DNA of 64,000 bases from an uncultured Candidatus Poseidoniales archaeon (GCA_963968165.1 CAXAFE010000011.1:4384-68383); one strand, 5' to 3'. Shown: positions 33,615 to 57,166, counted from the stretch's first letter. Notes: a model not told the origin generated them from the sequence alone. A program made the numbers and translations.

Positions 33615-36254
33615 ATGGATAGAGAAGAGGTAACCATTAAAATTGAACAAATTTACAAAGATAATTTATCTGAATCAGAATTTAAAAAGAAAAGTGCAAA
33701 TATCTCAAAGATGTTAGATAAATATGAAGGAAAGTATGATAAATTAATTAATGCTATGAATAGGAAATATGCAGATAAAAGTGTTATTGTTGACGATTCG
33801 AAGCCCAATGCATCTGAAAGTAAAGTCAAGGCGAAAAAGGCAGTTAAGTCTACATCGGATGGAACGCATTCAAGTTTTGCAGAGTCAAATAAAGTTTCGA
33901 GAAAAGAAGTTCTTGCAAAAGAGAAAGCAAAAAAGAAAGCAGCGATTATAAAGGCTAAATTGGCAAAAAAGGAAGCTTTGGCTCAGGATAAGGCATTAAA
34001 AAAGGCTAATATGGCCAAGGCAAAAATGAAGGTAACTGCAGCTGAACAGAAATCTAAAACAGAAAGAACTGCAGCTGAACAGAAATCTAAAACAGAAAGA
34101 ACTGCAGCTCAAAAGAAAGTAAAGGCTATGAAGTCAGAGTACCAAGCTGAAAATAAGAAAAAGATAAAAATAGCAACTCAGGCTGTTAAAATACAGGGAG
34201 AAGCCAAAAAATCTGCAATAGAAGTAAAAAAAACTGAAGTAATGATAAAGCAGCAAAAGGCAAAAATGACAAAGATTCCAGAGGATATAGAGAAGTTAAA
34301 ATCGAAAATTGTAAATTCAAAGGAACTATTAAAAGAAAATGCTAGATTGAAGGTTAAATTGGATAAGGAATTATCAGAATTAACAAAAAAGAATAAAGTT
34401 ATGGGAAAAAAACTTGAATCTGTTGTAAAATCAGGAGGAGAATCGTTAAAGAATCTTAATAGGTTAACAAAGGAAGTAGTTCAACTAAATGAGCAGATAT
34501 CTAGCGATAAAAGTGCTCGAAAACAAATGGAATTAGATTTAGGAAAAGAATCTCATAGATTAGAACAAACTAAAGTTAAGATCATTGAAACTCAGAAGAA
34601 AAGAGAAATTGCAGTAGCTGAAAGTAAGGTCACTGGGAAACTCAAGAAAGAAAAAGAAATAAAATATCAAGCAGAAGTAAAACCAAGAGTCGAGGCGGAA
34701 AGAAAATTAAAGTCTGAGGAAAGCATGACTCACACAATAATGGTTGAATTAAAGAAAACAAAATCAGAGATAAGTAGTCTCGAAACTAAGATAGAGTCTA
34801 ATGCTACTCAACGGGTTGAAATTGAAAAGAAATTTGTAAAGCAACAGGCAGAGACTGAACAATTACATGCTGATAATGAGAAAGGTAGAGAAGAAATTGA
34901 AAATTTATTTAATCAATCCCACAGTGATAAAGAAAAGTTAGAAGAGATTAATGTCAAACTCGAAGAAGTTAAAACAAAACACGAAGAAGCTGAAAAAATA
35001 GCAGTAAGCGTTTTACAAAGAAGAGAAGAACTACAAGAAAAATTAAAATCGTTTAACGTGGCTACAGAAAAGATGATAAAATCTGCAGATGAAGAAGAAA
35101 AGGCTGCAATAAACGCAAAAACAAAGGCTGAGGAAGATAGAGAAAAGGGTAGGCAATTAAAGAAAGAATATTCAGCATTGAAGGAGAAACATAAGGCAGC
35201 TAAAGAGAGAGTTCAAATTGCTAAGAAAACCAAACAGGATATTGAAAAATTAGTTCTTGAAGAAGCCAAAATAAGACGTGATTTAGAGCAGAAGACTAGT
35301 AAAGAACAAAAATCTATAGAAGCCGCCATGAAGGAACTTGAAGAACAAAACAAACAAAAAATAGAAGCTAAACGTAGGTCTGAAGAAGAAATTCGAAAGA
35401 GAAAATCTACTGAGAGAGTATTGAAAGAAGAAACAGAAAGATGGATTGCTGCTATGGCTGAAGTTGGTGTTGAGACATTGGCTAGAGAAGAAGCCGAGAG
35501 AAAAGAAAAGATAGAGATAAAGGCACATGCGAACATGGCAGAAAAGGCAAATAACATGAAGCAATCAAGATTAGAGGAAGAACAAAAGGCAAGAGAATCT
35601 ATTGAACTTCATAAGAAAGCCCAAGCTGAAGAAGAAAAATTGGCCCAGGAACGTAAGAATTTTGAAGATCAGGTAAAAGAAGATGAAAAGAAAAGAGAGC
35701 GAGGTATTAGAATAGCAGAAAGGGAAGCGGCTAATGCGTTGAATGCAGAAGAAAGAATTCTTGCAGAAAAGAAGGCAATGGAAAAAGCCAGATCTGATGT
35801 AAAGAAGAAGGCAGAGGCCAGGGAAAGAAAGGAAAAAGAAACAAGAGCTAATGAAGAATTTGAAGAAAGTGAGAAGCGTAGAATAAGAATGGAATTAGAA
35901 GAAGAGATTAGTGAAGAGTTAGAGCGACTAAAGGGAGAGGAAAGCAAAATGACTGCAAAGGAATATATTCTCGCGAGAGTAGATGCCAAAGGACATTTAA
36001 TTGACTTTATCACAATTGGTAGAGACAAAGGTGCTAAAGATGATTTACAAATGATAAATGGTTTAGACTCTGGCCTGGAAGAGCGTTTGAATTTAATAGG
36101 AATATCTACATTTGAACAAATATCTAAAATGACAGATGAGATTGCTGATGAAGTTAATGAAGCGATTGAGCATTTCCCTGGTAGAATTAGGAGGCAGGGT
36201 TGGGTACAACAAGCCAAAGTCATACTGGAAGATAGCCTACTCAGTGACCTATAA
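33615..36254 (+). CDS. 879-aa Lys/Glu/Ala-rich coiled-coil protein ending in an H3TH-like (COG3743/DUF4332-like) domain
   Basis: About 750 aa are low-complexity K/E/A heptad-like sequence. The C-terminus is IDFITIGRDKGAKDDLQMINGLDSGLEERLNLIGISTFEQISKMTDEIADEVNEAIEHFPGRIRRQGWVQQAKVIL. Confidence 0.75.
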   Translation: MDREEVTIKIEQIYKDNLSESEFKKKSANISKMLDKYEGKYDKLINAMNRKYADKSVIVDDSKPNASESKVKAKKAVKSTSDGTHSSFAESNKVSRKEVLAKEKAKKKAAIIKAKLAKKEALAQDKALKKANMAKAKMKVTAAEQKSKTERTAAEQKSKTERTAAQKKVKAMKSEYQAENKKKIKIATQAVKIQGEAKKSAIEVKKTEVMIKQQKAKMTKIPEDIEKLKSKIVNSKELLKENARLKVKLDKELSELTKKNKVMGKKLESVVKSGGESLKNLNRLTKEVVQLNEQISSDKSARKQMELDLGKESHRLEQTKVKIIETQKKREIAVAESKVTGKLKKEKEIKYQAEVKPRVEAERKLKSEESMTHTIMVELKKTKSEISSLETKIESNATQRVEIEKKFVKQQAETEQLHADNEKGREEIENLFNQSHSDKEKLEEINVKLEEVKTKHEEAEKIAVSVLQRREELQEKLKSFNVATEKMIKSADEEEKAAINAKTKAEEDREKGRQLKKEYSALKEKHKAAKERVQIAKKTKQDIEKLVLEEAKIRRDLEQKTSKEQKSIEAAMKELEEQNKQKIEAKRRSEEEIRKRKSTERVLKEETERWIAAMAEVGVETLAREEAERKEKIEIKAHANMAEKANNMKQSRLEEEQKARESIELHKKAQAEEEKLAQERKNFEDQVKEDEKKRERGIRIAEREAANALNAEERILAEKKAMEKARSDVKKKAEARERKEKETRANEEFEESEKRRIRMELEEEISEELERLKGEESKMTAKEYILARVDAKGHLIDFITIGRDKGAKDDLQMINGLDSGLEERLNLIGISTFEQISKMTDEIADEVNEAIEHFPGRIRRQGWVQQAKVILEDSLLSDL
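34035..34109 (+). repeat. Perfect in-frame 33-nt tandem duplication (2.3 copies) inside the coiled-coil gene
   Basis: ACTGCAGCTGAACAGAAATCTAAAACAGAAAGA occurs at 34035-34067 and 34068-34100, followed by 9 nt of a third copy. It encodes TAAEQKSKTER x2. Confidence 0.95.
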
Positions 36255-36307
36255 AATTAGATTACATAAACATCAATGATTAATTATAATAAAATGTTCG
36301 CAGGACT

Positions 36308-36922
36308 GTGAGTATTGCTGCTTCAATTTTAGAATTGTTGATGATACTTGCAATAGGATTGGTTATTCCCGGGCCAAATGCGTTAACTTCTTTTGCTCAT
36401 AGTGGATTGTTTGGAAATAAGAGTAATATTTCACTTATTGCAGGAATGGCGATAGGTCTTATAATGATGGAGGTTTTTATAGGTTTGACAGTTGAATCAT
36501 TAAGAGATATTAATAATGGTTTCATATTCCTCCACTGGGTTGGTATGCTTTTTTTACTTAGTATCTGCATAGGAATGTTTAGAATTGATATATCATCAAT
36601 CTCAAGCTCTGATACGCCAGTTAGACTTGGCCTTAAGTCCGGCATTGTAATGCAATTCTTTAACGGGAAAGAGTGGGCTTTCTTGATTATGATTATGAGT
36701 CAATTTATTGAACCCTTTGGAGGAGGATTATTTGGAATTACAATAATAATTATAATCACATTATTAGTTTGTATACCTGCAATGATAGCATGGACCATTG
36801 CAGGAGATAAGTTATCAAACTATTTTGCTGATCCAGTATTTGGAAAAAGAATTTTTAAAATATGTGGAGGTTTATTATTTCTACTTTGGGTGGTATTCTT
36901 CATTAGAGGTCCTATGAACTAA
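36308..36922 (+). CDS. LysE/RhtB-family amino-acid exporter
   Basis: 204 aa with ~6 TM helices. The N-terminal motif is LAIGLVIPGPNAL (PGPN). The start is GTG. Confidence 0.65.
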   Translation: MSIAASILELLMILAIGLVIPGPNALTSFAHSGLFGNKSNISLIAGMAIGLIMMEVFIGLTVESLRDINNGFIFLHWVGMLFLLSICIGMFRIDISSISSSDTPVRLGLKSGIVMQFFNGKEWAFLIMIMSQFIEPFGGGLFGITIIIIITLLVCIPAMIAWTIAGDKLSNYFADPVFGKRIFKICGGLLFLLWVVFFIRGPMN

Positions 36923-36945
36923 GATTTTGGGCATAATATCATTAA

Positions 36946-37614
36946 TTATCTACTAACTAAATTAATAATTTTTGACTCCGCCAATTGGAGATGTTCACTA
37001 ACTGTCGACTGTTGGATATTCATTACTTTGGCAATATCTCGTTGAGTGCAACTTCTTGGACGGCTATAATAGCCCATGTTAATGGCCTTATCCAGAACTA
37101 AACGTTGTTTTTTATTTAGTGAATCAATGAATTCAGGACTTTGGAGTGTTTCTGATCCGATTTTGACTGAAAAACCATCACCAATTAAAATAGAAATATT
37201 ATTACGTACTTCTCGTAAAGCGGACTTTGTTCCACGTAGCGTCATTATCATTCCATTAGCAGTCATATAAGTTGGATTTACCCACCACGAATCATAATTA
37301 TTGATAAATAAACTCGGAATCGGGCCTGTTAGAATTACTTTTACCAAAGCAGAGTTCTGTCCTATTGATTTTACTTCAAATATTTCCATTCCTTGATGGT
37401 TTTGATATAGGACTTTTTCATCTTCAAAATCTAATTTTACGAAGCAAATTAGTCCTCTGGGTGTTCTTTTAATGAGAGTGATAAATTCGATTTTGAAAAA
37501 TGATTCTATCCATTTTGAACCCGGTAATTCACTTCCAGATTGAATAGCAAAAGATACTTGCATATACCGTAAATCTAGATTTTTTATCATAAAGTTAGTT
37601 TTATTATCGGACAT
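36946..37614 (-). CDS. HTH_10 (bacterio-opsin-activator-type) transcriptional regulator
   Basis: The C-terminal motif is LNKKQRLVLDKAINMGYYSRPRSCTQRDIAKVMNIQQSTVSEHLQLAESKII, matching LT.RQ...L..A...GY...PR ... hL(R/Q).AE.K. The N-terminal ~150 aa are unassigned. The gene is divergent from the giant ORF. Confidence 0.75.
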   Translation of the reverse strand: MSDNKTNFMIKNLDLRYMQVSFAIQSGSELPGSKWIESFFKIEFITLIKRTPRGLICFVKLDFEDEKVLYQNHQGMEIFEVKSIGQNSALVKVILTGPIPSLFINNYDSWWVNPTYMTANGMIMTLRGTKSALREVRNNISILIGDGFSVKIGSETLQSPEFIDSLNKKQRLVLDKAINMGYYSRPRSCTQRDIAKVMNIQQSTVSEHLQLAESKIINLVSR

Positions 37615-37641
37615 TTAATCGGGTCTCGCTTACACAACGCG

Positions 37642-37663
37642 AATCATAGCCCATTCATGATAG
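37642..37663. promoter_or_regulatory. Copy 1 of a repeated operator-like motif AATCAT-N-CCATTCATGATAG
   Basis: AATCATAGCCCATTCATGATAG, with the 13-mer CCATTCATGATAG at 37651-37663. It contains the inverted pair ATCAT/ATGAT and lies 28-49 nt upstream of the regulator start at 37614. Confidence 0.4.
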
Positions 37664-37729
37664 TGTCGAATGGATTATGAAATAATACCTTTTTGTTTAA
37701 GTATACGATTAAATTTGTTTAGTTAAGTA

Positions 37730-37752
37730 AATCATCATACCATTCATGATAG
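37730..37752. promoter_or_regulatory. Copy 2 of the repeated operator-like motif
   Basis: AATCATCATACCATTCATGATAG, with the identical 13-mer at 37740-37752. It lies immediately upstream of the TATA-like element of the giant ORF. Confidence 0.4.
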
Positions 37753-37760
37753 GTAATGCA

Positions 37761-37768
37761 TTTATATT
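37761..37768 (+). promoter_or_regulatory. TATA-box-like element for the giant ORF
   Basis: TTTATATT lies 25-32 nt upstream of the ATG at 37793. This spacing implies a leaderless or near-leaderless mRNA. No Shine-Dalgarno motif lies between them. Confidence 0.4.
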
Positions 37769-37792
37769 AATTATCACCTCCCAAGATTAGAT

Positions 37793-40700
37793 ATGTTTGG
37801 TAAAAGAGAATGCAAAGCATTTTTACTAGTATCATTAATGATAATTAGTACACAAATATCTCTAATCGGAAGTATTGATTTTAGTTCAGAGTTAAACGAA
37901 GAAGTTCAAAGATTTGAATCAAATAATGGAGATGTAACAATAATCTCTGTTGGTAATTCTCAATCCTGTGCAATTGGTACAGATAACAAAATGAAATGCT
38001 GGGGGGATGGAGATCAGGGTAAAACAGGTCATGAAAATACTGAAGATTATGGAGATGAAACTTTAGAAATGGGACGCTATCTTTATTTTACAGACGTTGG
38101 AACTAATTTAACGTTCTTAGATGTTGCACTAGGAGATACCTTTTCTTGTGCATTAGTAAATGATAGTTCAATTAGGTGCTGGGGAGAGAATGATAAACTT
38201 GGCAATAGTTTAGGTTTATCAGGTTCGGGCTCTAGAGGCGACGGTTATCTTGAGATGGGCTCAAATGTTAATACGGTGAATATTGGTACGTGGTTAGCTA
38301 ATTCCATAGAAGCCGGAGGAAGTCATGCCTGTGCAGTTGTAAATAACGGGACAGATGATTCTTTAGTTTGTTGGGGAGAAAATTCCGTTGGTCAATTAGG
38401 GCTAGGCAGCACAGATACCGTTGGAGATGATGTAGGAGATTTAGAAAGTGGCGAATTGCCTCATGTTGACTTACCAAACAGAGGAGGTATAACCAGCGTA
38501 ACACTTGGCAAGGATCATACTTGTATATTGTGGGCTGACGGAGAAATAGGTTGCTGGGGAGATAACTCTGCAGGACAATTAGGCATAGGAAATACAGACA
38601 CTATTGGAGATGAATCTAATGAAATGAGTACTAATTTGGTACTTGTAGATCTCCCCTCGGACCGTACTGCAACTGCAATTACTGCAGGAAATGATTTCAC
38701 ATGTGCAATTTTGGATGACGCAAGTATTGCATGTTGGGGAGAGGGGAGTAATGGAAGGTTAGGAACAGGAACCATCACTGATGAAGGTGATGAATCTGAT
38801 GAGATTGGAGATGATTTGAATATTGTTAATGTTGGTTCAGGATTAGGTGTTATATCGGCAGATGCAGGAGATTCACATATATGTGCCATATTAACAAATA
38901 ATCAGTTAAAATGTTGGGGAAAAAATGATTTTGGTCAACTTGGATATGGTAACGGACTCTCAATAGGTGATGATGACAATGAAATGGGAGACAGCCTAGA
39001 TGCGGTCTCACTCGGTACTGGAATTACTGCTAGTTCGGTAAAATCTGGAGATTCATTTACTTGTGCCTTAACAAATAATGACAGAGTGAAATGTTGGGGC
39101 TCTGGCGAAGATGGTAGGACGGGGCTTGGAAAAACTGGCGCTACTGGAGATGAGCCGAATGAGATGGGGAATTATTTAGAATATGTGGAGCTTTTTATGC
39201 CTTTAGAGGTATTCAACCTTGAATGTGATGTTGAAGCAGAGGGCGTAGATTCGGAATTATTAGCATTAGACAGTACATCTAACAATGTCGGTAATAAAGT
39301 ATCTACTACACTCAGTTCGAAATCATGTGCCAGTATGGCATATGTTGATGATGAAATAAATACAGCAAAATTTGGCATATATAATCTGAATAAATGGACA
39401 ATAGAGGAAGTTTACATATCGGGTACTTCAATATCCGATACAAGCATAACATTGGACTCAAATGATATTCCCCACTTATTATATATGGACACAGTTCAAC
39501 CCATATATTATACTAAATATGATGGAGAATGGACGTCTACTGCCCTTTCTTCCTCTTGGTTAGGTAGTTCTGTAGATATAGAAATAGACAGCTTGGGTAA
39601 TCTATACTTGTTCTCATTGTCTTCAACTGAATTAAATATAGTAGTTTGCTTGGAATCTTCAGATTGTTTAGATACTTCAAGTTGGACTGAAGTTGGCTCA
39701 ATATCAGTAGTATCAGGAGGATATGGATTAGATTCAGACATATCATATGATGATAAATTATGGATTGGGTATGTAGATGAAACAAGTGGAGATACTGATA
39801 TTGAACTGTCGACATGTTCTAGTTCATGTGAAATAATTGGAAATTGGCAACAAGTAATAATCAGTAATTTAGGAGATATTTCAACTGAAAACGCTTCTGT
39901 TGCATTAGACATAGGGGCAAACGGTTCGGTTCATGTTGCACATAATAATCTCGTAAATGGCCTACAATACTCAAATTGTTATTCAAGTTGTGAATCTGCT
40001 TCATCTTGGACTACTGAAGAAATTTTACAAACTTATAGTACAGGAGTTATTGATATTGGAACTGGACCAGATTTGTCTGTAGTCATAATTGTTGGAACTT
40101 CTAATGGAGAGTTTACACTGCATAAGAAAGATAATCAATGGAATTACAATCAGGTCAGAGGGACAGGAGATTCGGGCTGGCTGGGCATAGAAATAACCGA
40201 TCTTGGACAAATGTGGGGGTTTGCCTTTTATCCTGATAATCCAAATTCATTCTATCAACTAAGGCAACAAGGAATGACAACTCCTGGATTAGAATTAGAT
40301 ATTGATGGAGATGGATGGATGAGAGTAGATGAAGATATGTGCGGTACTAATTTCAGAGATTCTACGAGTATACCAATAGATACTGATGCTGATTATCTGT
40401 GTGAAATTATAGATGGAGCAGTAAGTGGAAATCCTTCAATCGGAGAATCAGATGTTTTGGCTTTAGGTGAAAAATTTGGATGTGCATTATTATCGGACGG
40501 AAGTGTAGCCTGTTGGGGAGATAATTCAGAAGGACAGCTTGGGAACAGTGTTGCAGGTGCAGATAGTGAATATGCAGTATTAGTGGATCTTCCAGATGGT
40601 TTTACGGCATCATCCATTGATGCTGGATCGGGGCATGCTTGTTCGGTAGGCGAGGATTTCTCACTAGTTTGTTGGGGGCGTAATACTGAGGGACAATTAG

Positions 40701-46700: not shown

Positions 46701-49700
46701 CTTGGTCAGATGAAGAGGAGATAGCATGCGGCTATTTGCCTTGGAGTAGTTTATCGACTCCTGCAGATTATGATGGAGATGGAATATGCGATGCATTGGA
46801 TATGGACTTAGATGGCAATGGATGGAATAATACATATCAGAAACAATGCTATGGAGAAGAGATTGATTTATGGAAAAATACAGAAATTTGGGGAAATACA
46901 GCAAGTGCCAATGTACCCTATTCTACTTATGATGGTGCTGGTTACGGAGGTTATGACTTCCTTATTTCCGATTATGGAATAAAGTCATATGCCACGTATA
47001 GTAATTTTTATTTAAGCCAAGGTTTAATCAGGCATGATGAGTCTGTATCTATTCAATACACCAACTACGTTTATTATGCATACGATTATTTTGAAGTTTT
47101 AGAACAAAATGGAATTATTTATGTGAATAATGAAGAACAAATAATTAGATTTCAAGATATAAATAATACAGGTACAGGAACTACTGTATCATCCTCGTTG
47201 GGTCAAGGCCCAATGGGAAGTGATATGGCCATTAGTAAAGATGGAGATATGGTTGTAAGTTATAATCAAGCAGAAAATAAGATAGTTGGGAATTATCTAA
47301 ATGGGACAGTTTTTAGTTTTAATTTACCCAGTAACCTTGGTGCAGGAGGACAAATAGCTTTCGGCCCTAATGGCAGACTCCACCTTATTGAGGTTGATTT
47401 GAATGCAAGAGATTCAGATTTACCCATTGGATTCTATCATTATTTCGCTGATTTAAATAATTCACTATCTGGTTATTCATCTATGGATTGGAGTACAGGG
47501 CAATTAGTACTTGAAAGAAATCAGAGTACTACTTCTTATTCCGCAAATACTCAATCGGATGCAGATAGTTATCATGCTGATTTACATGTAACCGATGCAG
47601 GTAATATTTACGCTGCTATGTATAATAATACTGATTTATGGAGTGCTTCCTATGCAGGGTCTACATGGACTAATCAAAAAATTGCTGAAGATACAGGAAA
47701 TAATGAAGGAATAATAATATCTTCTGATTCCTCAGGGACCCCTCATATTGGTTGGATTAATCACACATCTGATAAGTTAATTATCTCAATATTTGATAGT
47801 TCTGAATGGATAGATGTCGAAATTTGGGAAAGTGATGGATGGGCCCCTGGGTTAAGACGTTCTAAATTATCATTGAGATTTGATAGTAATGACGATTTAT
47901 TTTTGATGTCGTATAATGCTAATTCAACAAATAGTGCCCTGATTCATCATAAAGTTCCATTGATTAATCCCGCATATTCATACAACCCCGTAGATCATGA
48001 TACTGATGGAATATGCGATAGTTTACAATATTCCATTATAGATTATGGAAGTACGACTTTTCAATTAATAGAAGGGAACGAGGTTACCATTAATCCAACT
48101 TTTAGAGGTCTAGAAATTGTTGAAGTGTATTCAACAAATCTTCCCTCAGGATTATCTTTGAATTCCACAACAGGCATCATAACGGGTTCTCCAACTGATA
48201 CCGACTTAATTGGAACATCTGTAACAGTCTATTCCAATAGTAGTAATTCTTCTTACACACACACCATAACGATATATGTAATCTCAAAAACTCCGACGAT
48301 AGCAGGAGTATCAACCCCTATACAAGTTAATGTTAATTATGAAAGAACCCAACACGAATATGATTCAGAAGGTAATCTATATTATTATGGAAGATATTCC
48401 TCGACTACTATTCCTGGTGAATTTACACCAGATGGGATATCCATATCAGGACTAACTAATGATGATGCTTATGTTGCTAAGAGGTTTAGTAATGGGACTT
48501 GGGCTTGGTTTTTCCCAATAAATGGTACCTCCACATTATATACAGGTAATTTAGCTGTAGATGATTTAGGAAATTCATATATCGTTGGAAATAGAGATTC
48601 TGGAGTGATAGATTTACCGGGCACTGTTTGGGATTTACCATCTGGAAAAGCGCCATTTATTATCTCAATAGATAATACTGGATCAATAAGGTGGGCAAAG
48701 GATATGGAAAGTACGGGCTCCATAAATTGGAAATTTGGAGTAAGGTATCAATTTGTAAGAGATTATGGGCATAGCGAGTTACATATTGATAATGCAACAG
48801 GAGAATTGACTTTTTCAGGAAGCATCAGTTCCACAGGTGTGACCCAGGAAGAAAGGACAGCAACATTTGGAAATTTGACATTGGAAATTGGAACTTCGTA
48901 TACTAGTTACTACAGGCCATTTGTGTTTAAAATGGATTCTTTAGGGGAATTTATTTGGGTACAAAGCATTACACCCAGTTATGCCCAACATTCTCCTCTT
49001 CAAGGGATGGCAGTACAGGAAAACGGGACAGTTAGTTTACTCTGGAAGTCATATTCCAGCTCTGTTGCGGGATCCATCACTGTTGGTGAAAATGGAGTTT
49101 GGCAGTTTATTTTAGCCAATATTAATTCAACAGGACATTGGACAAACAGTAAATCGATTTTAGAAGAAACCGACCATAACCGTATTGCCTCAACAGAGGT
49201 AGGTGCAAAAATGGAAAGTGTCAAGAACGGCGATATTGTAATTGCAATGTGGTCTTTGGATGATACTAGTAAAATAAGAATATCTGATAGCATTTATTGG
49301 TTCAATGAAACATGTGTAGATAGTTTAGCAATACTTAGATTAGATGGTACAGACTGGCAAGTAGAAAATAGTTTAGAAATATGTTTGGCTGGAAACGGAG
49401 GCAGCGGCGCCAGTAAAACTGATAAAATGGAAGTAGATTCACAGGATAGGATTTGGCTTTTTATAGGATCAACTTCTTTAAGTAACCATAATAGAATCAT
49501 TAGATTAGATTCAATACTTAATACCGATTTTGAAGAATATTTCACTTATGCTAATAATAGAGGTAATTCTTTCTATATCTATTGGCAAGATGTGACTTTT
49601 GATAATGATGATAATGTCTTTTTAACAATATATAATAATGCTTATTCTTCTTTGTGGTGGGATGAGTCCAGTATTCCTTATACTTACAATATTTATTATA

Positions 49701-52700
49701 GAAATTTATTCCTTATGGATAAAGTTCGACATACAATTGATGGGAAAAATCCAGTATTTGGTGAGCAGATTAACTATGGAATCAATGGACTCAGTGCTAT
49801 GGGAGGAAGTGATTATGATCAGATTGATAGTTATGCAATTTCACCCGATCTACCTGATGGTTTAGAATTTAATATTGGAACTGGAGTGATATCGGGCACC
49901 GCCATAACAAATTCTTCATTAGCTAATTATACAATATGGGTTAATGATACATTACTAGGAAATCAGGTCTTAAATATCGCTTTTGAAGTGCTCAATGGGA
50001 AACCCAATGTTACTTATGAGCAAACAGAATTCATATTCGAACGGGGGGCGATAATAGCGCCTATTGTCCCGACAGAGATCAATGGAACTATAGTTTCGTG
50101 GAATGTAGTACCCGCACTCCCGTTTGGATTGAGTATGGGAGAAAGTAATGGTACTATTTGGGGCATACCAACAGTTAACTTAACTTCTACAATATTTAAC
50201 TTGCAAGTAAGTAGTGATGGGGCTACTAGAAATATATATTTTAATTTCACAATTAATGAGCCCTTGGCTACAATAACATATGGAAATGGCTCGTATATTG
50301 TTGGAAGAGATTCACTAGTAAGCATATTCCCCGCATTAGGAGGAGGGGAAATTGCGAGTTTTGGAATTACACCAACATCATTACCAATGGGGCTTGAATT
50401 TAATCCTGCGACAGGAAGTATTACTGGAACTCCACTTTTGGTTGTTGGTGCAGTTAATTATACAGTTTTTGCTAACAATTCAGGAGGTTCTGTAAATACT
50501 AGTCTCATACTAACAGTTACAGGTAGTGGGATTAGTCTAGTATTTCCTACCTCATCAATAGAATTGGTCAACGGAAGTGAAATGCAACCCATTGCAGGTC
50601 AAACATCGGGTTCTGCACCAAATTATTGGGAAATATCGCCAGAATTACAGGATGGACTAGAATTTGGAATTTTCAATGGAACGATTTGGGGCACTCCATC
50701 TGAGGTAATGAATTCAACCACTTACATCATCTGGGCAAATACTACAGGAGGAGAGACTGCTAATGCAGAATTAACAATCTCCGTACTCATAGATACGGAT
50801 GGAGATGGCACTCCCGACACCATAGATATTGATGATGATAACGATGGTTGGAGCGATATTGATGAAAATAATTGTGGAAATAATCCATTAGATAATACTA
50901 ATTATCCAAGTGATTCAGATGCTGATGGGATTTGTGATTCTTTAGATACCAATAATGATGCTGATATAATAATATTATATCCAACAAATGAATTATATAT
51001 TACAGTTAACCAAAGTTTCACACCACTTGTGCCATTTACTTCTGGAGGAGATATTACAGGTTGGGAAGTCAGCCCTAACCTGCCATTTAATATAGAATTA
51101 AATAGTTCAACAGGCGTTGTCTCAGGGATGGCTACGACCATATTTAATGCCACTACATATACCATATGGGCAAATAATTCAGCGTATTCTGGATTGTTTA
51201 ACCTTTCAATAATTTCATCACTTTTGGATACTGATGGAGATGGTAGCCCAGATGAAACAGATTTGGATGATGACGGAGATGGTTGGACTGATACAGATGA
51301 AATCACATGCCTTACTAATCCACTGGACTTAGAAGATCTCCCGGTTGATAGTGATGGAGATGGAATTTGTGACGGGGCTGATCCAGTTAATGATTCAGAA
51401 ATATTCTTCAGTTATCCATATACTGTATTAGTAATTACCGTTAATAGCTCGGTATCACTAAATCCGTATGTTACTGGAGGAGACGTCATAACGTGGGAAA
51501 TATACCCTCAATTACCTGAAAATTTGATTTTTAATTCTGATAATGGACTAATTAATGGAGAAGCCATATCTGAGTTCCTCCCTACAAATTTTACAATATG
51601 GGCTAATAATTCTCAATATTCATCTATGTTCATAATAGAACTTGCTTCATTATTGTTAGATACTGATGAAGATGGAGTTCCAGATGAAACAGATATAGAT
51701 GATGATGGAGATGGTTGGACTGATAGTCAAGAAATAAATTGTTCGAGCGACCCATTGATAGCGTCAAGTATTCCACCAGATAGTGATGAGGATAATGTAT
51801 GTGATAATTTAGATGACGTAAATGATGCACAAATATATTTGACATATTCTAGCCTTTCTCAGAATTTATTTGTAAATGAACCAATGGACTACTTAGTAGC
51901 AACTGTTTATGGAGGAGATGTAAGAGAGTGGGAAATTAGCCCTGAATTACCTTTAGGACTCAATTTGGACAATGGAGTTGCATATAGATCTCTTTCCATG
52001 GTAGGAACAGGATTAATATCGGGTTCGCCGATGTATGAATTTCCATTAACTATTTTTACAGTTTGGGCTAATAACTCACAACATAGCGATTCTATAGCGA
52101 TTGCTTTAAAATCTTCAATTCCTGATTTGGATGATTCATATTTTGATTTACTTTACCTTGAAGATAATATTAATTTAACTATAGAATTTGATGAGTTATA
52201 CCTTGAGCCAGAAATATTTGGCGGTAATGTAACAAATTGGAGCATTATTCCTCAAATTCCAGAAGGATTGATATTTAATTTCGATAATGGAGTAATTTCT
52301 GGACAACCATTAATTTCATTTAATGAAACGATATTTTCAATATCAGCTAGTAATTCTATTCATATTGATATTTTTAATCTAACACTATCTGCTCAATATC
52401 TTGATTCAGATTTAGATGGAATTCCTGATATAATAGATGAAGATGATGATGGAGATGGTTGGAATGATACTATGGAAATAGATTGTGAAACTGAACCACT
52501 AGAATTTTATCTCTCCCCTGGTGACACAGATGGAGATGGAATGTGTAATCTATTAGACACATTAGATGATTCTCCAATCCTTTTCTTTTACCCTAATGAT
52601 AAGATAATTGGCATTGTTGGTGAAGAAATTCAATCGATTGTTCCAAGAATAGCACCGTCAGGAGGAGATATTCTTGAATATAGTGTATCTACACCATTAC

Positions 52701-54445
52701 CAGATGGATTAATCATTGATATCTTTACTGGAGTAATTTCCGGGACACCATTAGTACAATTTGATCATTTAATTTTGGAATTCTCTCATACAATTACAGC
52801 AAGTAATGGACAGTATAATTTTTCTTATTCTGTAGATTTTGATATCATTCCGAAAATTATTGAAGACTTGGATACTGATGGTGATGGCTGGACCAACCAA
52901 GATGAGCTTAGCTGTAATACCTCTCAAATCGATCCAGAGTCTTATCCTCAAGATATTGATCTTGATGGAAAATGTGAACTGATGGATGATGATGATGATG
53001 GTGACGGAAGGGCAGATGAAATAGATGCGTTTGCAAACAATTCTTATGCGTGGGAAGACACTGATGGTGACGGAATTCCGGATGATGTTACATGCAAATA
53101 TTCAACAAACTCTTCTTATTGTATTTCTTTAGATTTGATAGCTGATACAGATGATGATGGTGACGGTTGGAATGATACTGCAGAAATAAGCTGTGGTACA
53201 AATCCTAAGAATGGTACTAATATGCCACTAGATGATGATGAGAATGGAGTATGTGATCGTTTAGAAATACAAGAAGTAGCCAATAACAAAATATTTTGGA
53301 TAGTTTGTTTTCCATTAGTATTGATATTGTTATTATTGTTCTGGCTATTAAATCCATTTGGAGTTAATGACGATGAAATAAGGGGCCCCGAACCGCCATA
53401 TACTAAATTCACCCCAAAGATACAAGAGGGCACTGGCGAATATGATAATCCATTCATACTTAAATCGATAAAAGGCGTTAGGGCCGGAGGAAGCACCCAA
53501 TCAAGAGAACTGATAAAGATTACAAATATTACGCCTAGATTAGAAATAGATTTTATCAATTTATCTACTGATGACGATAATGGGAGATTTAGCATGAAGA
53601 ACATTAAAGCTAATTCAAGAGGCGAAATAGAATTTAGGCTCGATTTCAATGATTACAATATTAGTCAGGAAGGTTCTAAATATAGTGCATTTATGAGAAT
53701 TGGAAAGGCGTCTGTATACTTGAAATGGGATGTAGAAGTTAAAAACACAAAAGATCTTACAGAGGAAGGAAGTCTACCAGTAAAAAATACTGCAAATACC
53801 GCTGTAAAGGTAGTTGAAGCTGAAGCTACTAGGCTGGCTGAAGAAGCTGAAGCTACTAGGCTGGCTGAAGAAGCTGAAGCAGATCAACGAATAAAAAGGA
53901 CTCTAGAAGAAATGGCTATATCAGAAGTTGATAAGATAAAGGAAAGAAAGATAAGGCTGGCTGAAGAAAAGAAGGTGGAACTATTGAGAAGAGTTGCAGA
54001 AAAAGCAAAAACCATTGATTTTGACATTATTGGTTATGCGGCAACTGCTGATGTCACAACTGAGATAACTCCAGGATTGGAAAGTATCACTCTAGGTGAT
54101 GCATCTTCTTTCCCAGAAAGTGGGAATGCATACATCAAAGATGAAAAAGTAAACATATCCATCAAATGGACTGGGAAAGATGGAGATACGCTGATAGGAA
54201 TTTCTGGCATAAATATGCACACACCAATCGGTTCAATGATAGTTCAAAAAGATAATTTACAAGACATAAAAGGTATTGGCCCATTTATAGAAGAAAAATT
54301 GAATGCTTTAAGCATATATACATTTAACCAGATATCAAATATGACTCATGAAATAGAAGAACAGGTTAATAATGCCATTGAATTCTTCCCGGGAAGAATA
54401 AGGAGAGATGAGTGGGTAAAACAGGCTTACGATTTTTTAAATTGA
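37793..54445 (+). CDS. Giant (5,550 aa) mosaic cell-surface protein: RCC1 propellers + unnamed ~48-aa repeats + TSP3 Ca-binding repeats + Ig-like (He_PIG-type) domains + TM + cytoplasmic coiled-coil/H3TH tail
   Basis: A single uninterrupted ORF in the track. The N-terminus is signal-like (AFLLVSLMIISTQISLIGS). By my count there are 21 CWG..N..GQLG blade signatures (7+5+9), ~10 LP.GL.F...TG.I.G.P motifs and many DxDxDGxxDxxD motifs. One TM helix (IFWIVCFPLVLILLLLFWLL) lies at 53291-53352, followed by a ~365-aa tail. Confidence 0.9.
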   Translation: MFGKRECKAFLLVSLMIISTQISLIGSIDFSSELNEEVQRFESNNGDVTIISVGNSQSCAIGTDNKMKCWGDGDQGKTGHENTEDYGDETLEMGRYLYFTDVGTNLTFLDVALGDTFSCALVNDSSIRCWGENDKLGNSLGLSGSGSRGDGYLEMGSNVNTVNIGTWLANSIEAGGSHACAVVNNGTDDSLVCWGENSVGQLGLGSTDTVGDDVGDLESGELPHVDLPNRGGITSVTLGKDHTCILWADGEIGCWGDNSAGQLGIGNTDTIGDESNEMSTNLVLVDLPSDRTATAITAGNDFTCAILDDASIACWGEGSNGRLGTGTITDEGDESDEIGDDLNIVNVGSGLGVISADAGDSHICAILTNNQLKCWGKNDFGQLGYGNGLSIGDDDNEMGDSLDAVSLGTGITASSVKSGDSFTCALTNNDRVKCWGSGEDGRTGLGKTGATGDEPNEMGNYLEYVELFMPLEVFNLECDVEAEGVDSELLALDSTSNNVGNKVSTTLSSKSCASMAYVDDEINTAKFGIYNLNKWTIEEVYISGTSISDTSITLDSNDIPHLLYMDTVQPIYYTKYDGEWTSTALSSSWLGSSVDIEIDSLGNLYLFSLSSTELNIVVCLESSDCLDTSSWTEVGSISVVSGGYGLDSDISYDDKLWIGYVDETSGDTDIELSTCSSSCEIIGNWQQVIISNLGDISTENASVALDIGANGSVHVAHNNLVNGLQYSNCYSSCESASSWTTEEILQTYSTGVIDIGTGPDLSVVIIVGTSNGEFTLHKKDNQWNYNQVRGTGDSGWLGIEITDLGQMWGFAFYPDNPNSFYQLRQQGMTTPGLELDIDGDGWMRVDEDMCGTNFRDSTSIPIDTDADYLCEIIDGAVSGNPSIGESDVLALGEKFGCALLSDGSVACWGDNSEGQLGNSVAGADSEYAVLVDLPDGFTASSIDAGSGHACSVGEDFSLVCWGRNTEGQLGRGTFSTYESPNFVNIPTGLGVNKFAIGTNHNCMKTSDGEIYCWGESDDERLGKILNPAINYSIVDNFENNDLDWTRTIGNYFNWDNSGFLYKTYYNSWSTDVIESDAFSINPGSVIQIKVDALRLGDNGGTLEVFIGEQLISTLTDSDWHDNIWTGYKTINITVPDSILDNVGLKFRVYCYRCTVKIDDLNTENTAYGGVSDLNIPTKLDFDNSDSISEIALGDRHSCTASVTNSGDDEIYCWGYNGGINSNVLGNYNYYGINSYLPQLVDLSGPDSLVSSNWSTNSIVSINAGSDTTCSILDSLESVCWGKSALTEYINPSIDTVASTGDIGRHPALMLDSNNYWNIAFYDSSNSDLRLAYYDGVSWNVESVYAGSNDVGEGVTITLDGDGNKHLVAYDHTDDEIVHMTKMINSTELIANIDGNSYNPATVVDSEGNIHIAYLEGTTKTLQYIYYNGTSWSSPILIDDYLTWSGYGTNDLQIDSSGNLHLSYYNWNTAPSNDPHELTYATYNGSVWSTYALQEMICSGACGTNGFSSSIEIDVNDRPHISYYDQKNDTLRYTHYDGTSWTDETVTTDDDNNNGIYNSISLDNNDYPRIAYYNVTHADLDLAVWDGSTWSFQKVDTMNSVGTYPSISIGTDDLTRIAYTYASQSDIKYASSTGTDWNFHTFEGSYSSIVSLGLDDLNNPRISAINIDGTDNVVLFYNNSNEWIEYNVEDNSGTNSNHPSMFVNSDGTAYIAYVNAGDGFVRYSTIYTGTIWNKNNIATTGDVSTSYPGLGMHFDRTDFLNLKYIDSTDSALKSTIVRNKGDLLSSLVDGENTNSGKHSSIVVDSAGNTHVSYYNISSTSLMYAKYNNSWAIEEVDNTGTSGVYTSIVIDDQDMPHISYQSEAKLKYAKYNGSGWELTTIDDESTYLAYETSIELDTNYNPHIAYRVQNYTGSTYEYHVKYAHYNGTNWTTEDVKTSDRSNWNSYSNTGRDVSIALNSTNTVFITYYDDYWDDLYIANKTGNNWTTSKIADNAGGNERSASIIVDSTDSIHLAYYDRSGYDLHYAFCQSSCELFTSWIHTLDIDSSSYNIGTYVSIALDSDNNPHIGYYDSAYADLEYAYCTDLCSSASSWVKETISSDNNVGYHVSISVDSNDNIYFSYYNASNTGLEIINLFSGIDDTTIISPIGSHHYQLGFVNLDGTEHLSYYNGTDTSGKLQYSTINLETGLWGATTVDESSTKTGLYSDIDLDSYGNPHISYFDSTNNKIKYAYYDSSSWVISDVATVGENSGYTSIVINSINRPNIAYHDSTTGDLMMAKWDGNSWTILAQDEGSAGLGTDISVDNTDMIFISYYDETTDDLEFVTTGYESPILTGNSYYHISGTSLDNGSGPIKSIDIGETHACAIMQITIKCWGSSQSGQLGNGVVADTSLSPVSVNSVGGFTPLEVSVSINSDSNGGSSCALYSEDLTNQRVVMCWGYGENGQIGDGADISLNSPSSTSKVSIDFEIALGIAYGSDYVSTGQNDPMKISLSSTSNFGCAMSYKGHVKCWGYNGYGQLGIENTTNSGDSDNEMGSNLKFVSLGVNRTAKDISLGGSHACAILDNNQVKCWGYNGYGQLGIENNTQIGDNYGELWGDNHPSINLGTGRTAVAISTGFSHTCVILDTGDIKCWGYNGYGQLGIGSTATIGDNPNEMGDNLAKVDLGYGRTALAIVSGTNSNCAILDSGLIKCWGRNNVGQLGIGSTTQIGDNTNEMGNNLEISRLGTDTIALSLSGGGSNYCALTNNRDIKCWGHNGYGQLGIENTTQMGDNVNEMGDNLIKVDLGTGRSAIRISTGSTHTCVILDNEDFKCWGYNGYGQLGIGSNTQIGDNTNEMGDNLISPELPLNSIKVLESGNHNTCAILFDNTIRCWGYNGYGQLGIGSTATIGDNPNEMGNEMAITNLHLIPKDSDGDGWIDLWDNDDDNDGYLDIYDHLPHDSRDWRDYDGDGLGTNVDTDDDDSDVKTVDQDTILTWSDEEEIACGYLPWSSLSTPADYDGDGICDALDMDLDGNGWNNTYQKQCYGEEIDLWKNTEIWGNTASANVPYSTYDGAGYGGYDFLISDYGIKSYATYSNFYLSQGLIRHDESVSIQYTNYVYYAYDYFEVLEQNGIIYVNNEEQIIRFQDINNTGTGTTVSSSLGQGPMGSDMAISKDGDMVVSYNQAENKIVGNYLNGTVFSFNLPSNLGAGGQIAFGPNGRLHLIEVDLNARDSDLPIGFYHYFADLNNSLSGYSSMDWSTGQLVLERNQSTTSYSANTQSDADSYHADLHVTDAGNIYAAMYNNTDLWSASYAGSTWTNQKIAEDTGNNEGIIISSDSSGTPHIGWINHTSDKLIISIFDSSEWIDVEIWESDGWAPGLRRSKLSLRFDSNDDLFLMSYNANSTNSALIHHKVPLINPAYSYNPVDHDTDGICDSLQYSIIDYGSTTFQLIEGNEVTINPTFRGLEIVEVYSTNLPSGLSLNSTTGIITGSPTDTDLIGTSVTVYSNSSNSSYTHTITIYVISKTPTIAGVSTPIQVNVNYERTQHEYDSEGNLYYYGRYSSTTIPGEFTPDGISISGLTNDDAYVAKRFSNGTWAWFFPINGTSTLYTGNLAVDDLGNSYIVGNRDSGVIDLPGTVWDLPSGKAPFIISIDNTGSIRWAKDMESTGSINWKFGVRYQFVRDYGHSELHIDNATGELTFSGSISSTGVTQEERTATFGNLTLEIGTSYTSYYRPFVFKMDSLGEFIWVQSITPSYAQHSPLQGMAVQENGTVSLLWKSYSSSVAGSITVGENGVWQFILANINSTGHWTNSKSILEETDHNRIASTEVGAKMESVKNGDIVIAMWSLDDTSKIRISDSIYWFNETCVDSLAILRLDGTDWQVENSLEICLAGNGGSGASKTDKMEVDSQDRIWLFIGSTSLSNHNRIIRLDSILNTDFEEYFTYANNRGNSFYIYWQDVTFDNDDNVFLTIYNNAYSSLWWDESSIPYTYNIYYRNLFLMDKVRHTIDGKNPVFGEQINYGINGLSAMGGSDYDQIDSYAISPDLPDGLEFNIGTGVISGTAITNSSLANYTIWVNDTLLGNQVLNIAFEVLNGKPNVTYEQTEFIFERGAIIAPIVPTEINGTIVSWNVVPALPFGLSMGESNGTIWGIPTVNLTSTIFNLQVSSDGATRNIYFNFTINEPLATITYGNGSYIVGRDSLVSIFPALGGGEIASFGITPTSLPMGLEFNPATGSITGTPLLVVGAVNYTVFANNSGGSVNTSLILTVTGSGISLVFPTSSIELVNGSEMQPIAGQTSGSAPNYWEISPELQDGLEFGIFNGTIWGTPSEVMNSTTYIIWANTTGGETANAELTISVLIDTDGDGTPDTIDIDDDNDGWSDIDENNCGNNPLDNTNYPSDSDADGICDSLDTNNDADIIILYPTNELYITVNQSFTPLVPFTSGGDITGWEVSPNLPFNIELNSSTGVVSGMATTIFNATTYTIWANNSAYSGLFNLSIISSLLDTDGDGSPDETDLDDDGDGWTDTDEITCLTNPLDLEDLPVDSDGDGICDGADPVNDSEIFFSYPYTVLVITVNSSVSLNPYVTGGDVITWEIYPQLPENLIFNSDNGLINGEAISEFLPTNFTIWANNSQYSSMFIIELASLLLDTDEDGVPDETDIDDDGDGWTDSQEINCSSDPLIASSIPPDSDEDNVCDNLDDVNDAQIYLTYSSLSQNLFVNEPMDYLVATVYGGDVREWEISPELPLGLNLDNGVAYRSLSMVGTGLISGSPMYEFPLTIFTVWANNSQHSDSIAIALKSSIPDLDDSYFDLLYLEDNINLTIEFDELYLEPEIFGGNVTNWSIIPQIPEGLIFNFDNGVISGQPLISFNETIFSISASNSIHIDIFNLTLSAQYLDSDLDGIPDIIDEDDDGDGWNDTMEIDCETEPLEFYLSPGDTDGDGMCNLLDTLDDSPILFFYPNDKIIGIVGEEIQSIVPRIAPSGGDILEYSVSTPLPDGLIIDIFTGVISGTPLVQFDHLILEFSHTITASNGQYNFSYSVDFDIIPKIIEDLDTDGDGWTNQDELSCNTSQIDPESYPQDIDLDGKCELMDDDDDGDGRADEIDAFANNSYAWEDTDGDGIPDDVTCKYSTNSSYCISLDLIADTDDDGDGWNDTAEISCGTNPKNGTNMPLDDDENGVCDRLEIQEVANNKIFWIVCFPLVLILLLLFWLLNPFGVNDDEIRGPEPPYTKFTPKIQEGTGEYDNPFILKSIKGVRAGGSTQSRELIKITNITPRLEIDFINLSTDDDNGRFSMKNIKANSRGEIEFRLDFNDYNISQEGSKYSAFMRIGKASVYLKWDVEVKNTKDLTEEGSLPVKNTANTAVKVVEAEATRLAEEAEATRLAEEAEADQRIKRTLEEMAISEVDKIKERKIRLAEEKKVELLRRVAEKAKTIDFDIIGYAATADVTTEITPGLESITLGDASSFPESGNAYIKDEKVNISIKWTGKDGDTLIGISGINMHTPIGSMIVQKDNLQDIKGIGPFIEEKLNALSIYTFNQISNMTHEIEEQVNNAIEFFPGRIRRDEWVKQAYDFLN
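37930..39190 (+). repeat. RCC1-like block 1 (7 blade signatures)
   Basis: The blades read KCWGDGDQG, RCWGENDKLG, VCWGENSVGQLG, GCWGDNSAGQLG, ACWGEGSNGRLG, KCWGKNDFGQLG and KCWGSGEDGRTG. Each is followed by ..GD...EMG and a ..(H/F)(A/T)CA strand. Confidence 0.8.
39330..40270 (+). repeat. First block (~6 units) of the unnamed ~48-aa repeat, several with a C-x3-C...W insert
   Basis: Units include PIYYTKYDGEWTSTAL, IELSTCSSSCEIIGNWQQV, LQYSNCYSSCESASSWTTE and FTLHKKDNQWNYNQV. Confidence 0.6.
40441..41650 (+). repeat. RCC1-like block 2 (5 blade signatures) interrupted by a ~140-aa non-RCC1 insert at ~40861-41290
   Basis: ACWGDNSEGQLG, VCWGRNTEGQLG and YCWGESDDERLG precede the insert. The insert begins ILNPAINYSIVDNFENNDLDWTR and ends RVYCYRCTVKIDDLN. 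YCWGYNGG and VCWGKS follow it. Confidence 0.7.
41690..44780 (+). repeat. Main array, ~21 units, of the unnamed ~48-aa repeat
   Basis: The consensus read by eye is G.Y.SI.(L/V)D(S/N)..N.PHI(S/A)YYD....DL.YA.Y(D/N)G(S/T).W..E.V. Example: TYVSIALDSDNNPHIGYYDSAYADLEYAYC..., LYSDIDLDSYGNPHISYFDSTNNKIKYAYYDSSSWVISDV. Confidence 0.75.
44840..46480 (+). repeat. RCC1-like block 3 (9 blade signatures); the last 7 form a ~180-nt DNA-level tandem array
   Basis: The core TGTTGGGGATATAATGGCTATGGGCAACTTGGAAT starts at 45311, 45491, 45674, 46214 and 46391 (identical), at 46034 (1 mismatch) and at 45854 (diverged). Spacings are 180/183/180/180/180/177 nt. Confidence 0.9.
49840..53260 (+). repeat. Ig-like (LPxGLxF..TGxIxGTP, He_PIG-type) domains, from ~50780 alternating with TSP3/Cys modules
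   Basis: Example Ig-like run: ISPDLPDGLEFNIGTGVISGTA...YTIWVN. TSP3/Cys modules are LLDTDGDGSPDETDLDDDGDGWTDTDEITCLTNPLDLEDLPVDSDGDGICDGAD and three or four further copies. Confidence 0.75.
53816..53881 (+). repeat. Perfect in-frame 27-nt tandem duplication (2.4 copies) in the tail of the giant ORF
   Basis: GAAGCTGAAGCTACTAGGCTGGCTGAA occurs at 53816-53842 and 53843-53869, followed by 12 nt of a third copy. It encodes (E)AEATRLAE x2. Confidence 0.95.
54251..54442 (+). other. C-terminal H3TH-like (COG3743/DUF4332-like) domain of the giant protein
   Basis: NLQDIKGIGPFIEEKLNALSIYTFNQISNMTHEIEEQVNNAIEFFPGRIRRDEWVKQAYDFLN aligns by eye, residue for residue, with the C-terminus of the 33615-36254 protein. 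Confidence 0.65.
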
Positions 54446-57157: not shown

Positions 57158-57166
57158 GGAATTTAT

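Follow-up and report, generated by a model that had tools for sequence, protein, structure and literature searches.

A COG3743-type helix-hairpin-helix module ends a giant surface protein and a neighbouring rod protein of a Poseidoniales archaeon: a candidate docking cassette with many unrelated carriers

A 64,000-nucleotide stretch of DNA from an uncultured Candidatus Poseidoniales archaeon (GCA_963968165.1, CAXAFE010000011.1:4384-68383; hereafter the window) raises the question of why a soluble, K/E-rich protein of 879 amino acids (aa) and a 5550-aa membrane surface protein encoded beside it end in the same module, and whether the two form a system connecting the cell surface with the cytoplasm. 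Such a system was the original prediction, made from the nucleotide sequence of the window: the coiled-coil protein and the tail of the giant protein would bind the same partner and thereby couple an extracellular adhesin to an intracellular filament-like protein. Our analysis showed that the module is a widespread domain of known family and that the closeness of the two genes is a matter of local synteny. We consider it probable that the module belongs to an autonomous docking cassette, carried on a long helical spacer, that would bind a universal cytoplasmic target or itself.

A shared helix-hairpin-helix cassette

The resemblance of the two C-termini, originally aligned by eye, was confirmed by BLASTP, with 36 of 60 residues identical, no gaps and E = 6e-23. 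A second high-scoring pair (HSP; E = 0.002) covered the preceding helix and an IDFxxIG pre-motif; the shared unit is thus larger than the ~60 aligned residues and includes a pre-motif upstream of the helix-hairpin-helix (HhH) part. In both proteins, a charged or low-complexity spacer precedes the module, which forms the very C-terminus. The coordinates, open reading frames (ORFs) and sequence strings given in the original prediction were reproduced, and its module positions were correct to 2-3 nt. The two genes and their modules are located as follows.

33615..36254, plus strand: gene of the soluble, K/E-rich 879-aa protein (the rod protein, 'CC family'), from ORF and translation
35958..36020, plus strand: pre-motif of the rod protein (KEYILARVDAKGHLIDFITIG), from the second BLASTP HSP with the pre-motif of the giant
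36036..36227, plus strand: COG3743-type HhH module of the rod protein (hairpin G-L-D, not G-I-G), from BLASTP, NCBIfam and a hidden Markov model (HMM)
37793..54445, plus strand: gene of the giant type-I membrane surface protein (5550 aa), an uninterrupted ORF
54248..54442, plus strand: COG3743-type HhH module of the giant protein (canonical K-G-I-G-P hairpin, FFPGRIRRDEW..QA), from BLASTP, PDB search, NCBIfam and HMM

The consensus of the module, D-[DN]-L-x-x-I-x-G-[IV]-G-P ... F-x-G-R-x-x-R-D-x-W-x-x-Q-A, is complete in the giant protein, and the rod protein retains most of it, differing in its hairpin (G-L-D-S) and in R-R-Q-G-W. In NCBIfam, the giant module matched NuoE PRK12373 (E = 4.5e-16), ribosomal protein S2 PRK12311 (1.3e-11), L21 PRK12278 (6e-11) and the phasin PhaH (1.9e-06); the corresponding values for the rod module were 1.5e-14, 3.5e-12, 4.8e-10 and 1.3e-05. 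Because these matches were confined to the last ~65 positions of the four whole-protein models and lay far below the whole-protein cut-offs, the window proteins are not members of these families. A sequence search of the PDB with the single sequence returned two Urf1-type proteins of Rhodobacterales, 8YY9 chain O (E = 4e-10) and 9WQV chain a (E = 9e-10), and the profile search returned the same chains at E = 5e-19 and E = 8e-18, respectively. Relatives of the module carry the source labels 'predicted flap endonuclease-1-like 5' DNA nuclease', 'COG3743' and 'helix-hairpin-helix domain-containing protein'. The NCBIfam ends and these source names bore out the COG3743 identity given in the original prediction: the module is a known, uncharacterised COG3743-type HhH domain, for which a literature search found no functional study. 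The second name given there, DUF4332 (PF14229), did not hold, as neither C-terminus matched it even at E<=10. No Pfam family was above threshold on the C-termini, with Cdd1 (E = 0.024) and HHH_5 (E = 0.26) the only sub-threshold matches. Multi-copy tandem relatives do reach PF14229, by adding up partial matches to the first hairpin of the profile (positions 2-57 of 122), and tandem-copy relatives pass the thresholds of HhH families in Pfam.

An AlphaFold2 model of the last 110 residues of the rod protein, built on a 53-sequence alignment, formed one compact all-helical domain (predicted local distance difference test, pLDDT, 88.7; predicted template modelling score, pTM, 0.78), and the pre-motif fell within the same compact domain as the module. 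The pre-motif, L-x-R-[VI]-x3-A-x2-I-[DN]-[FW]-x2-[IL]-G, is common to archaeal and Bacteroidetes relatives. The cassette is an autonomous unit of ~100 residues, consisting of a helix with the 'IDF..IG' pre-motif followed by a five-helix HhH-type domain. Foldseek found no match of the module model in the PDB at E<1; the nearest neighbours, both weak, were the HhH region of NusA (4mtn, E = 1.2) and the HhH domain of RadA (2z43_B, root-mean-square deviation 1.9 Å over 62 columns). The best structural neighbours of the model are accordingly AR1/AR2 of NusA, which are acidic (HhH)2 repeats, and the HhH domain at the N-terminus of RadA/Rad51, but neither shows sequence similarity or a significant Foldseek score, and the pre-motif has no counterpart in them.

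Identities among the modules separated a giant type from other subtypes. Giant-type modules are 67-85% identical among Poseidoniales giants and 64-77% identical to the closest Bacteroidetes modules; that of the window giant is 70-72% identical to the closest Bacteroidetes modules and 54% to a more divergent one. The window rod module is 57% identical to that of the giant, 51-61% to giant-type modules in general and 48-49% to distant CC orthologues, and the modules of the rod family and of a hydrolase family described below are more divergent subtypes than the giant type. Despite the slight excess of identity to giant types over distant CC orthologues, recent copying of the rod module from the neighbouring giant gene was rejected as unproven: the G-L-D hairpin and W-V-Q-Q signature are those of the CC family, since the G-[LI]-D hairpin and W.QQ are common to the window rod module and the distant orthologues. 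When module and pre-motif are taken together, Poseidoniales sequences and those of three Bacteroidetes loci (L006, L008 and L016) are 64-77% identical, about as high as among archaeal giants. This parity suggests that the giant-type module and pre-motif were transferred between Archaea and Bacteroidetes, that is, between domains of life.

Architecture of the rod and giant proteins

Besides the cassettes, the following elements were recognised in the two proteins.

33615..33779, plus strand: N-terminal domain of ~55 aa specific to the CC family (…NI[SP]K[ML]L[DK]K[YF].G.Y….K..KKY[GA]), conserved in the window, P0121 and L014
37793..37873, plus strand: signal-peptide-like N-terminus of the giant protein (MFGKRECKAFLLVSLMIISTQISLIGS), one of only two hydrophobic segments
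53291..53350, plus strand: single transmembrane helix of the giant protein (IFWIVCFPLVLILLLLFWLL), from a hydropathy scan, with a near-identical helix in L010 and L011
53441..53746, plus strand: juxtamembrane beta-sandwich of the giant tail, conserved in the tails of other giants and modelled with 8 strands (pLDDT ~70-79)
53798..54040, plus strand: long charged helix ending in the pre-motif (VELLRRVAEKAKTIDFDIIGYA, 53975-54040), from a single-helix model of tail residues 148-215 and the pre-motif alignment
54044..54247, plus strand: small beta insert that separates the pre-motif from the module (…SGNAYIKDEKVNISIKWTGKDGDTLIGISG…), retained in relatives of the tail, P0065 and P0081 among them, and modelled with six short strands (pLDDT 73-84)

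The rod protein has no hydrophobic segment and only 4 Pro. In a home-made Fourier test, a 3.5-residue periodicity stood at 4-6 times the background in residues ~200-300, 350-560 and 640-700, or ~40% of the protein, and the remaining E/R/K-rich stretches resemble single alpha-helix segments. In line with its original description as a soluble coiled-coil protein, it is predicted to form an extended helical rod in which stretches of coiled coil are interspersed with others that may be single alpha-helix. Its N-terminal domain matched no Pfam family, and a profile search of the PDB gave nothing below E = 0.77. A full-length orthologue, P0121 (890 aa), is 62% identical. When metagenomes were scanned with the CC-family N-terminal domain, 50 loci were found, all coding for coiled-coil proteins that end in the module. 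Five of them are close relatives of 879-902 aa; the other 45 belong to a distant clade of higher GC content (52-56%) whose orthologues, at 515-570 aa, share this N-terminal domain and, behind a K/A/E coiled coil, carry both pre-motif and module. The CC family is conserved across Poseidoniales and has a module subtype of its own. Spacer length varies widely among the orthologues, as the two size classes indicate, and the spacer of the window protein contains a tandem repeat, TAAEQKSKTER x2, at ~34044-34110.

The hydrophobic segments of the giant protein are confined to residues 7-28 and 5167-5186. Its ectodomain has RCC1-like domains at the N-terminus and He_PIG and TSP3 repeats near the membrane; it is acidic and rich in N, S, T and G, with 3.7% K+R and 1.6% Cys, whereas the 359-aa tail has 13.7% K+R and no Cys. 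From the signal-peptide-like start, the single transmembrane helix and this switch in composition between ectodomain and tail, we infer that the tail is very probably cytoplasmic, in agreement with its original placement inside the cell. In other Poseidoniales giants with this tail (Poseidonia-type giants), 6-8 acidic residues precede the transmembrane helix and RNR(D/E)K follows it; the positive-inside bias is clear in L001-L004 and less marked in L007, whereas for the window, L010 and L011 it does not decide the matter. In the tail model, which is of moderate confidence (pLDDT 63), the beta-sandwich next to the membrane is followed by a helix of ~68 residues that closes with the pre-motif, then by the beta insert and finally by the HhH module. 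Foldseek gave weak PapD/ASH-like matches for the beta-sandwich (2e6j, TMt 0.55, E = 0.02; all E>=0.004). The whole 359-residue tail is kept in other giants. An archaeosortase-type anchor (PGF-CTERM and similar) was ruled out, as a structured 359-residue tail follows the helix. The tail helix contains a tandem peptide, EAEATRLAEEA x2, at window positions ~53830-53890.

The 5550-aa ORF is absent from the public gene calls of the contig to which the window belongs (L028; ENA ERZ23491256 scaffold_103), and the same gap at the giant ORF was noted for L022. Small antisense ORFs are called in its place, such as one of 124 aa at window positions 38515-38889. Because the ORF was not called, the giant protein is missing from protein collections derived from the ERZ23491256 record.

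Carriers of the module and gene neighbourhoods

When a profile of the cassette was searched against 1.84 billion representative proteins, 14,170 clusters (50% identity) passed E<=1e-3, and 6,526 passed the stricter E<=1e-10; a single protein can hold as many as 26 copies. A scan of one genome per species with the module matched mostly Poseidoniales and marine Bacteroidetes and returned mostly giant-protein tails, many of them cut by contig ends upstream. The word-indexed homologue search returned only proteins of <=140 aa for an 80-aa module query and of <=672 aa for a 384-aa tail query, so that much longer carriers, such as giant and rod proteins, evidently fell outside its reach; candidates for the full 879-aa rod query were dominated by K/E-rich sequences, of which only P0121 passed. 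Known bacterial carriers include NuoE, ribosomal proteins S2 and L21, phasin and Urf1/protein-O, all ribosomal or cytoplasm/matrix-side proteins. In NuoE (PRK12373), S2 (PRK12311), L21 (PRK12278) and PhaH (NF045508), a low-complexity spacer likewise leads to this module, which closes the protein; these carriers differ from the archaeal ones in being bacterial housekeeping proteins. Urf1 resembles the giant tail in its C-terminal ~65 residues and in its order of membrane anchor, long flexible linker and compact cytoplasmic-side C-terminal domain; unlike the giant, it is a small bacterial protein of 229-239 aa, has an N-terminal U-shaped helix pair plugged into the reaction centre-light-harvesting 1 (RC-LH1) complex, and lacks an ectodomain, the pre-motif insert and the beta-sandwich. 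Further carriers were L21 (L019), polytopic membrane proteins (L005, L017 and L018) and a phasin-like protein (L015).

Within Poseidoniales, at least three carrier families were recognised: the tails of several giants, the rod family and a UPF0227 alpha/beta-hydrolase coiled-coil protein. The module stands at the C-terminus of giants in L001-L004, L007 and L009-L013 (all cut by contig ends), each with one or two modules and a single transmembrane helix that lies 240-480 residues from the C-terminus. Those of L010 and L011 are collinear orthologues of the window giant (64% identical over 2,100-2,877 aa). In L001, L002 and L007, the ectodomain matched that of the window giant only at 25-30%, in repeats, whereas the tail is common and the modules are 70-79% identical. 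Since different ectodomains are followed by the same tail, the tail is a cassette common to different surface proteins.

The closest relatives in sequence outside Archaea are the Bacteroidetes proteins of L006, L008 and L016, transmembrane coiled-coil carriers with 2-4 module copies, whose pre-motif and module are up to 77% identical to the Poseidoniales giant type. They share with the giants the order of anchor, long coiled coil and C-terminal cassette, and in L006 a soluble one-cassette paralogue is encoded next door; they differ in their N-terminal helix anchor, with almost nothing extracellular, their tandem cassettes and an OmpA-family gene upstream. The N-terminal helix has no charge before it and a K/R cluster after it, on the module side. 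For archaeal giants, Bacteroidetes proteins and the other bacterial carriers alike, the indications place the module in the cytoplasm. These anchored carriers were not described in the literature searched. L006 (2813-10201) holds three paralogous coiled-coil genes in a row, coding for an anchored protein without the module, an anchored one with modules and a soluble one with one module. The OmpA-family gene lies directly upstream of the anchored coiled-coil gene in L008 (3198-8956) and one gene further in L006.

Between the rod and giant genes, 1538 bp apart, lie two genes, an arrangement that had been described correctly in the original prediction.

36308..36922, plus strand: RhtB/LysE-type exporter gene (NCBIfam PRK10520, E = 4e-12)
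36946..37614, minus strand: HTH_10 regulator gene (Pfam HTH_10, E = 1.5e-16)

We take the exporter gene to be simply a neighbour. The HTH_10 gene, divergent from the giant gene at a distance of 178 bp, is likewise a neighbour and a possible regulator. Both keep their positions beside the rod gene in the close clade only. Among close relatives, the order rod - exporter - HTH_10 - giant is kept in L020-L027 and L029-L033, with all neighbours collinear; for the five close metagenome loci, this was judged on contigs that extend far enough. Around P0121, eight contigs show the same order, starting with FtsJ and running past the DEAD helicase as far as a giant of 5525 aa, the orthologue found in L020/L023. 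Because the whole region is collinear, adjacency within this clade carries no information. The adjacency is absent in the distant clade, where ~45 loci and L014 have no module-bearing giant gene within 10 kb on either side of the rod gene. There, a surface-protein gene lies upstream and divergent, followed by an aminotransferase gene and the rod gene, and downstream come genes for cysteine dioxygenase, Pth2, GatE and MCM; 8.7 kb downstream of the rod gene is that of a UPF0227 alpha/beta-hydrolase with an acidic coiled coil and two cassettes. The closeness of the rod and giant genes is therefore local synteny and not a conserved functional pair. The two recurrent genes of the distant clade are located as follows.

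L072:5438-8551, minus strand: 1040-aa RCC1-repeat (RCC1/ephrin-receptor-like) surface protein, with equivalents in ~30 loci
L014:8723-10537 and L072:18566-20122: UPF0227-type hydrolase genes, found also in 13 further loci

The 1040-aa protein has a C-terminal transmembrane helix, a short basic tail and no module. RCC1-like domains occur both in this protein and at the N-terminus of the window giant, as a remnant of an old neighbourhood or by chance.

Downstream of the giant gene (window 54487-58087) lie genes for an MscS-type channel, a topoisomerase IB with a eukaryotic-type catalytic core and a bacterial TopIB N-domain, an 82-aa ORF and GTP cyclohydrolase II. The same order follows the giant tails of L009, L010, L011 and L013, and MscS alone follows that of the more distant L007, so that the adjacency of giant and MscS genes reaches further than that of rod and giant genes. 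The window itself is archaeal, its closest relatives being metagenome-assembled genomes of Candidatus Thalassarchaeaceae/Poseidoniales (marine group II). It contains an archaeal RNase P RNA (16716-17008, plus strand, 234 bits) and three tRNA genes (Gln-TTG 12591-12664, Lys-CTT 15777-15851 and His-GTG 58093-58167). An HMM built from both modules, run over the six-frame translation of the whole 64 kb, recovered no copy besides these two (next best E = 0.58). Three other large, probably secreted proteins are encoded here without the module: an 1133-aa ORF with no Pfam match (2183-5584, minus strand), a 2015-aa subtilase with a PPC domain (6515-12562, minus strand) and a 796-aa CARDB protein (58246-60636, plus strand).

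What the cassette may bind

In the reading that we consider probable, the cassette would have been attached many times in evolution to unrelated proteins, usually behind a long charged or helical spacer and facing the cytoplasm. The module would act as a docking domain and, from the tip of an extended spacer, tie its carrier to a single, universal target in the cytoplasm, which might be nucleic acid or the nucleoid, or further modules of the same kind. The 64-77% identity between archaeal modules and their closest Bacteroidetes counterparts suggests that the target is universal. In the giant, the module would give an extracellular adhesin-like molecule a cytoplasmic hold. It is plausible that the rod protein and the giant tail would bind a common partner; a coupling of adhesin to filament is speculation.

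Several observations weigh against this docking reading. In the distant clade, the hydrolase gene was present at all 15 loci that reach that far (14 metagenome loci and L014), which may be more than chance proximity; the RCC1-repeat surface-protein gene 1.3 kb upstream of the distant rod gene, and the adjacency of membrane-anchored and soluble coiled-coil carriers in L006, are hints in the same direction. In structures of Urf1/protein-O/protein-3h, only the N-terminal membrane part is seen, the compact C-terminal domain being flexible or cleaved, and the protein-O paper calls the physiological function of the C-terminal domains obscure (PMC12079452, PMC13066640). The version with nucleic acid as target is further weakened by the charge of the modules and by their hairpins. 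The giant and rod modules have net charges of -5 and -6; all 86 related modules examined were neutral or negative (down to -9), with means of -3.0 and -3.8; and the second hairpin Gly is replaced by Asp in the CC and hydrolase families.

The hints from gene proximity bear most directly on a dedicated transmembrane linkage, in which the rod or filament protein and the giant tail would bind each other or the same partner and couple the adhesin to a scaffold. Module and pre-motif are common to both proteins, the genes are kept 1.5 kb apart in the close clade, the tail is probably cytoplasmic, and the rod protein is predicted to be elongated and helical. The neighbouring anchored and soluble carriers of L006 offer a parallel, and the distant-clade rod gene has both a surface-protein gene and another, recurrent module-bearing gene nearby. 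However, adjacency is uninformative in a wholly collinear region, the ~45 distant-clade loci lack a module-bearing giant gene in the range searched, and the RCC1 protein encoded there has only a short tail without the module. Several giants unrelated to one another also share the tail cassette, and the CC module, at 57% identity to that of the giant, stands apart as a subtype that has diverged further than the modules of giants have from each other (67-85%). We regard this linkage as improbable. Thus, of the original idea, the homology, the identity of the module and the probably cytoplasmic tail stood, whereas the two-gene system failed, because the module is found on thousands of unrelated proteins (14,170 clusters) and the pair is adjacent only in close relatives, where all else is collinear; a dedicated rod/giant system is unlikely.

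Two narrower readings concern the nature of the target. If the module were a non-sequence-specific nucleic-acid (DNA)-binding HhH domain, its carriers (the giant tail, the rod protein and the bacterial hosts) would be tethered to the nucleoid, linking it to the membrane or to large complexes. The canonical hairpin of the giant type, I-K-G-I-G-P-x-I-x-x-K-L, is consistent with this reading, as are the weak Pfam HHH_5 and Cdd1 matches, the tandem-copy relatives above HhH thresholds and the HhH domains of RadA and NusA as best, if weak, fold matches. Arrays of up to 26 copies would suit a polymeric ligand, and the cross-domain identity would be accounted for if Bacteria and Archaea had the ligand in common. 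Nevertheless, with every examined module acidic or neutral, an Asp in the hairpin of two families and no Foldseek match at E<1, DNA binding can be held only as a tentative option, somewhat on the unlikely side. The acidic net charge and the Asp-containing hairpins would fit a domain for protein-protein docking or self-association, comparable to the acidic (HhH)2 repeats of NusA, by which carriers would cluster mutually or on a conserved machine. The AR repeats of NusA are an established precedent for an acidic HhH fold in protein docking, and the C-terminal region of NusA was the top structural match, albeit weak. Tandem arrays, the occurrence of several genes with the module close together (in L006 and in the distant archaeal clade) and carriers that form large complexes (ribosome, complex I, RC-LH1 and the polyhydroxyalkanoate (PHA) granule) point the same way. 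A partner conserved from Archaea to Bacteroidetes would need to be universal, however, and the structural match is not significant (E = 1.2), so we judge protein docking unlikely as well, and slightly more so. An active flap-endonuclease-like nuclease, as the COG name has it, is hardly credible: the source names ('predicted flap endonuclease-1-like 5' DNA nuclease') are all that favours it, only the ~65-residue HhH part is present, Pfam and NCBIfam searches found no PIN-like/5'-3' exonuclease domain in either protein, and the carriers are ribosomal, respiratory and surface proteins.

Transmembrane linkages from the surface to the cytoskeleton are known in integrin-talin, the linker of nucleoskeleton and cytoskeleton (LINC) complex and the Agl-Glt focal adhesion of Myxococcus with its coiled-coil protein AglZ. 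The Poseidoniales pair resembles them by analogy only, in combining an extracellular adhesive protein that has a cytoplasmic tail with an elongated cytoplasmic coiled-coil protein; it differs in lacking homology to them. A Poseidoniales coupling apparatus, in which diverse giants would be held via the tail cassette by a rod-protein scaffold or the nucleoid through module-module or common-ligand contacts, is a long shot, a shade less probable even than the dedicated linkage. If it existed, it would be an archaeal counterpart of integrin/LINC-type linkages and would provide the first function for a domain that >14,000 protein clusters contain, with bacterial ribosomal proteins and complex I among them.

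The module is common, occurring on ribosomal proteins, complex I, photosynthetic core complexes, PHA granule proteins and archaeal giants, yet it is an orphan in function. Poseidoniales, the most abundant planktonic archaea of surface oceans, add to it an architecture in which a huge extracellular protein has a conserved, module-ended cytoplasmic tail and a rod protein bears a sister module; giant cytoplasmic tails ending in the module and an order-wide rod family were not found in the literature searched. Our result is a hypothesis-generating annotation, a good starting point for working out what a very common orphan domain does, and not a demonstrated system. Identification of the ligand would explain how giant adhesin-like proteins are anchored or positioned in these uncultured marine archaea, and why the same hook is found on bacterial ribosomes and respiratory complexes.

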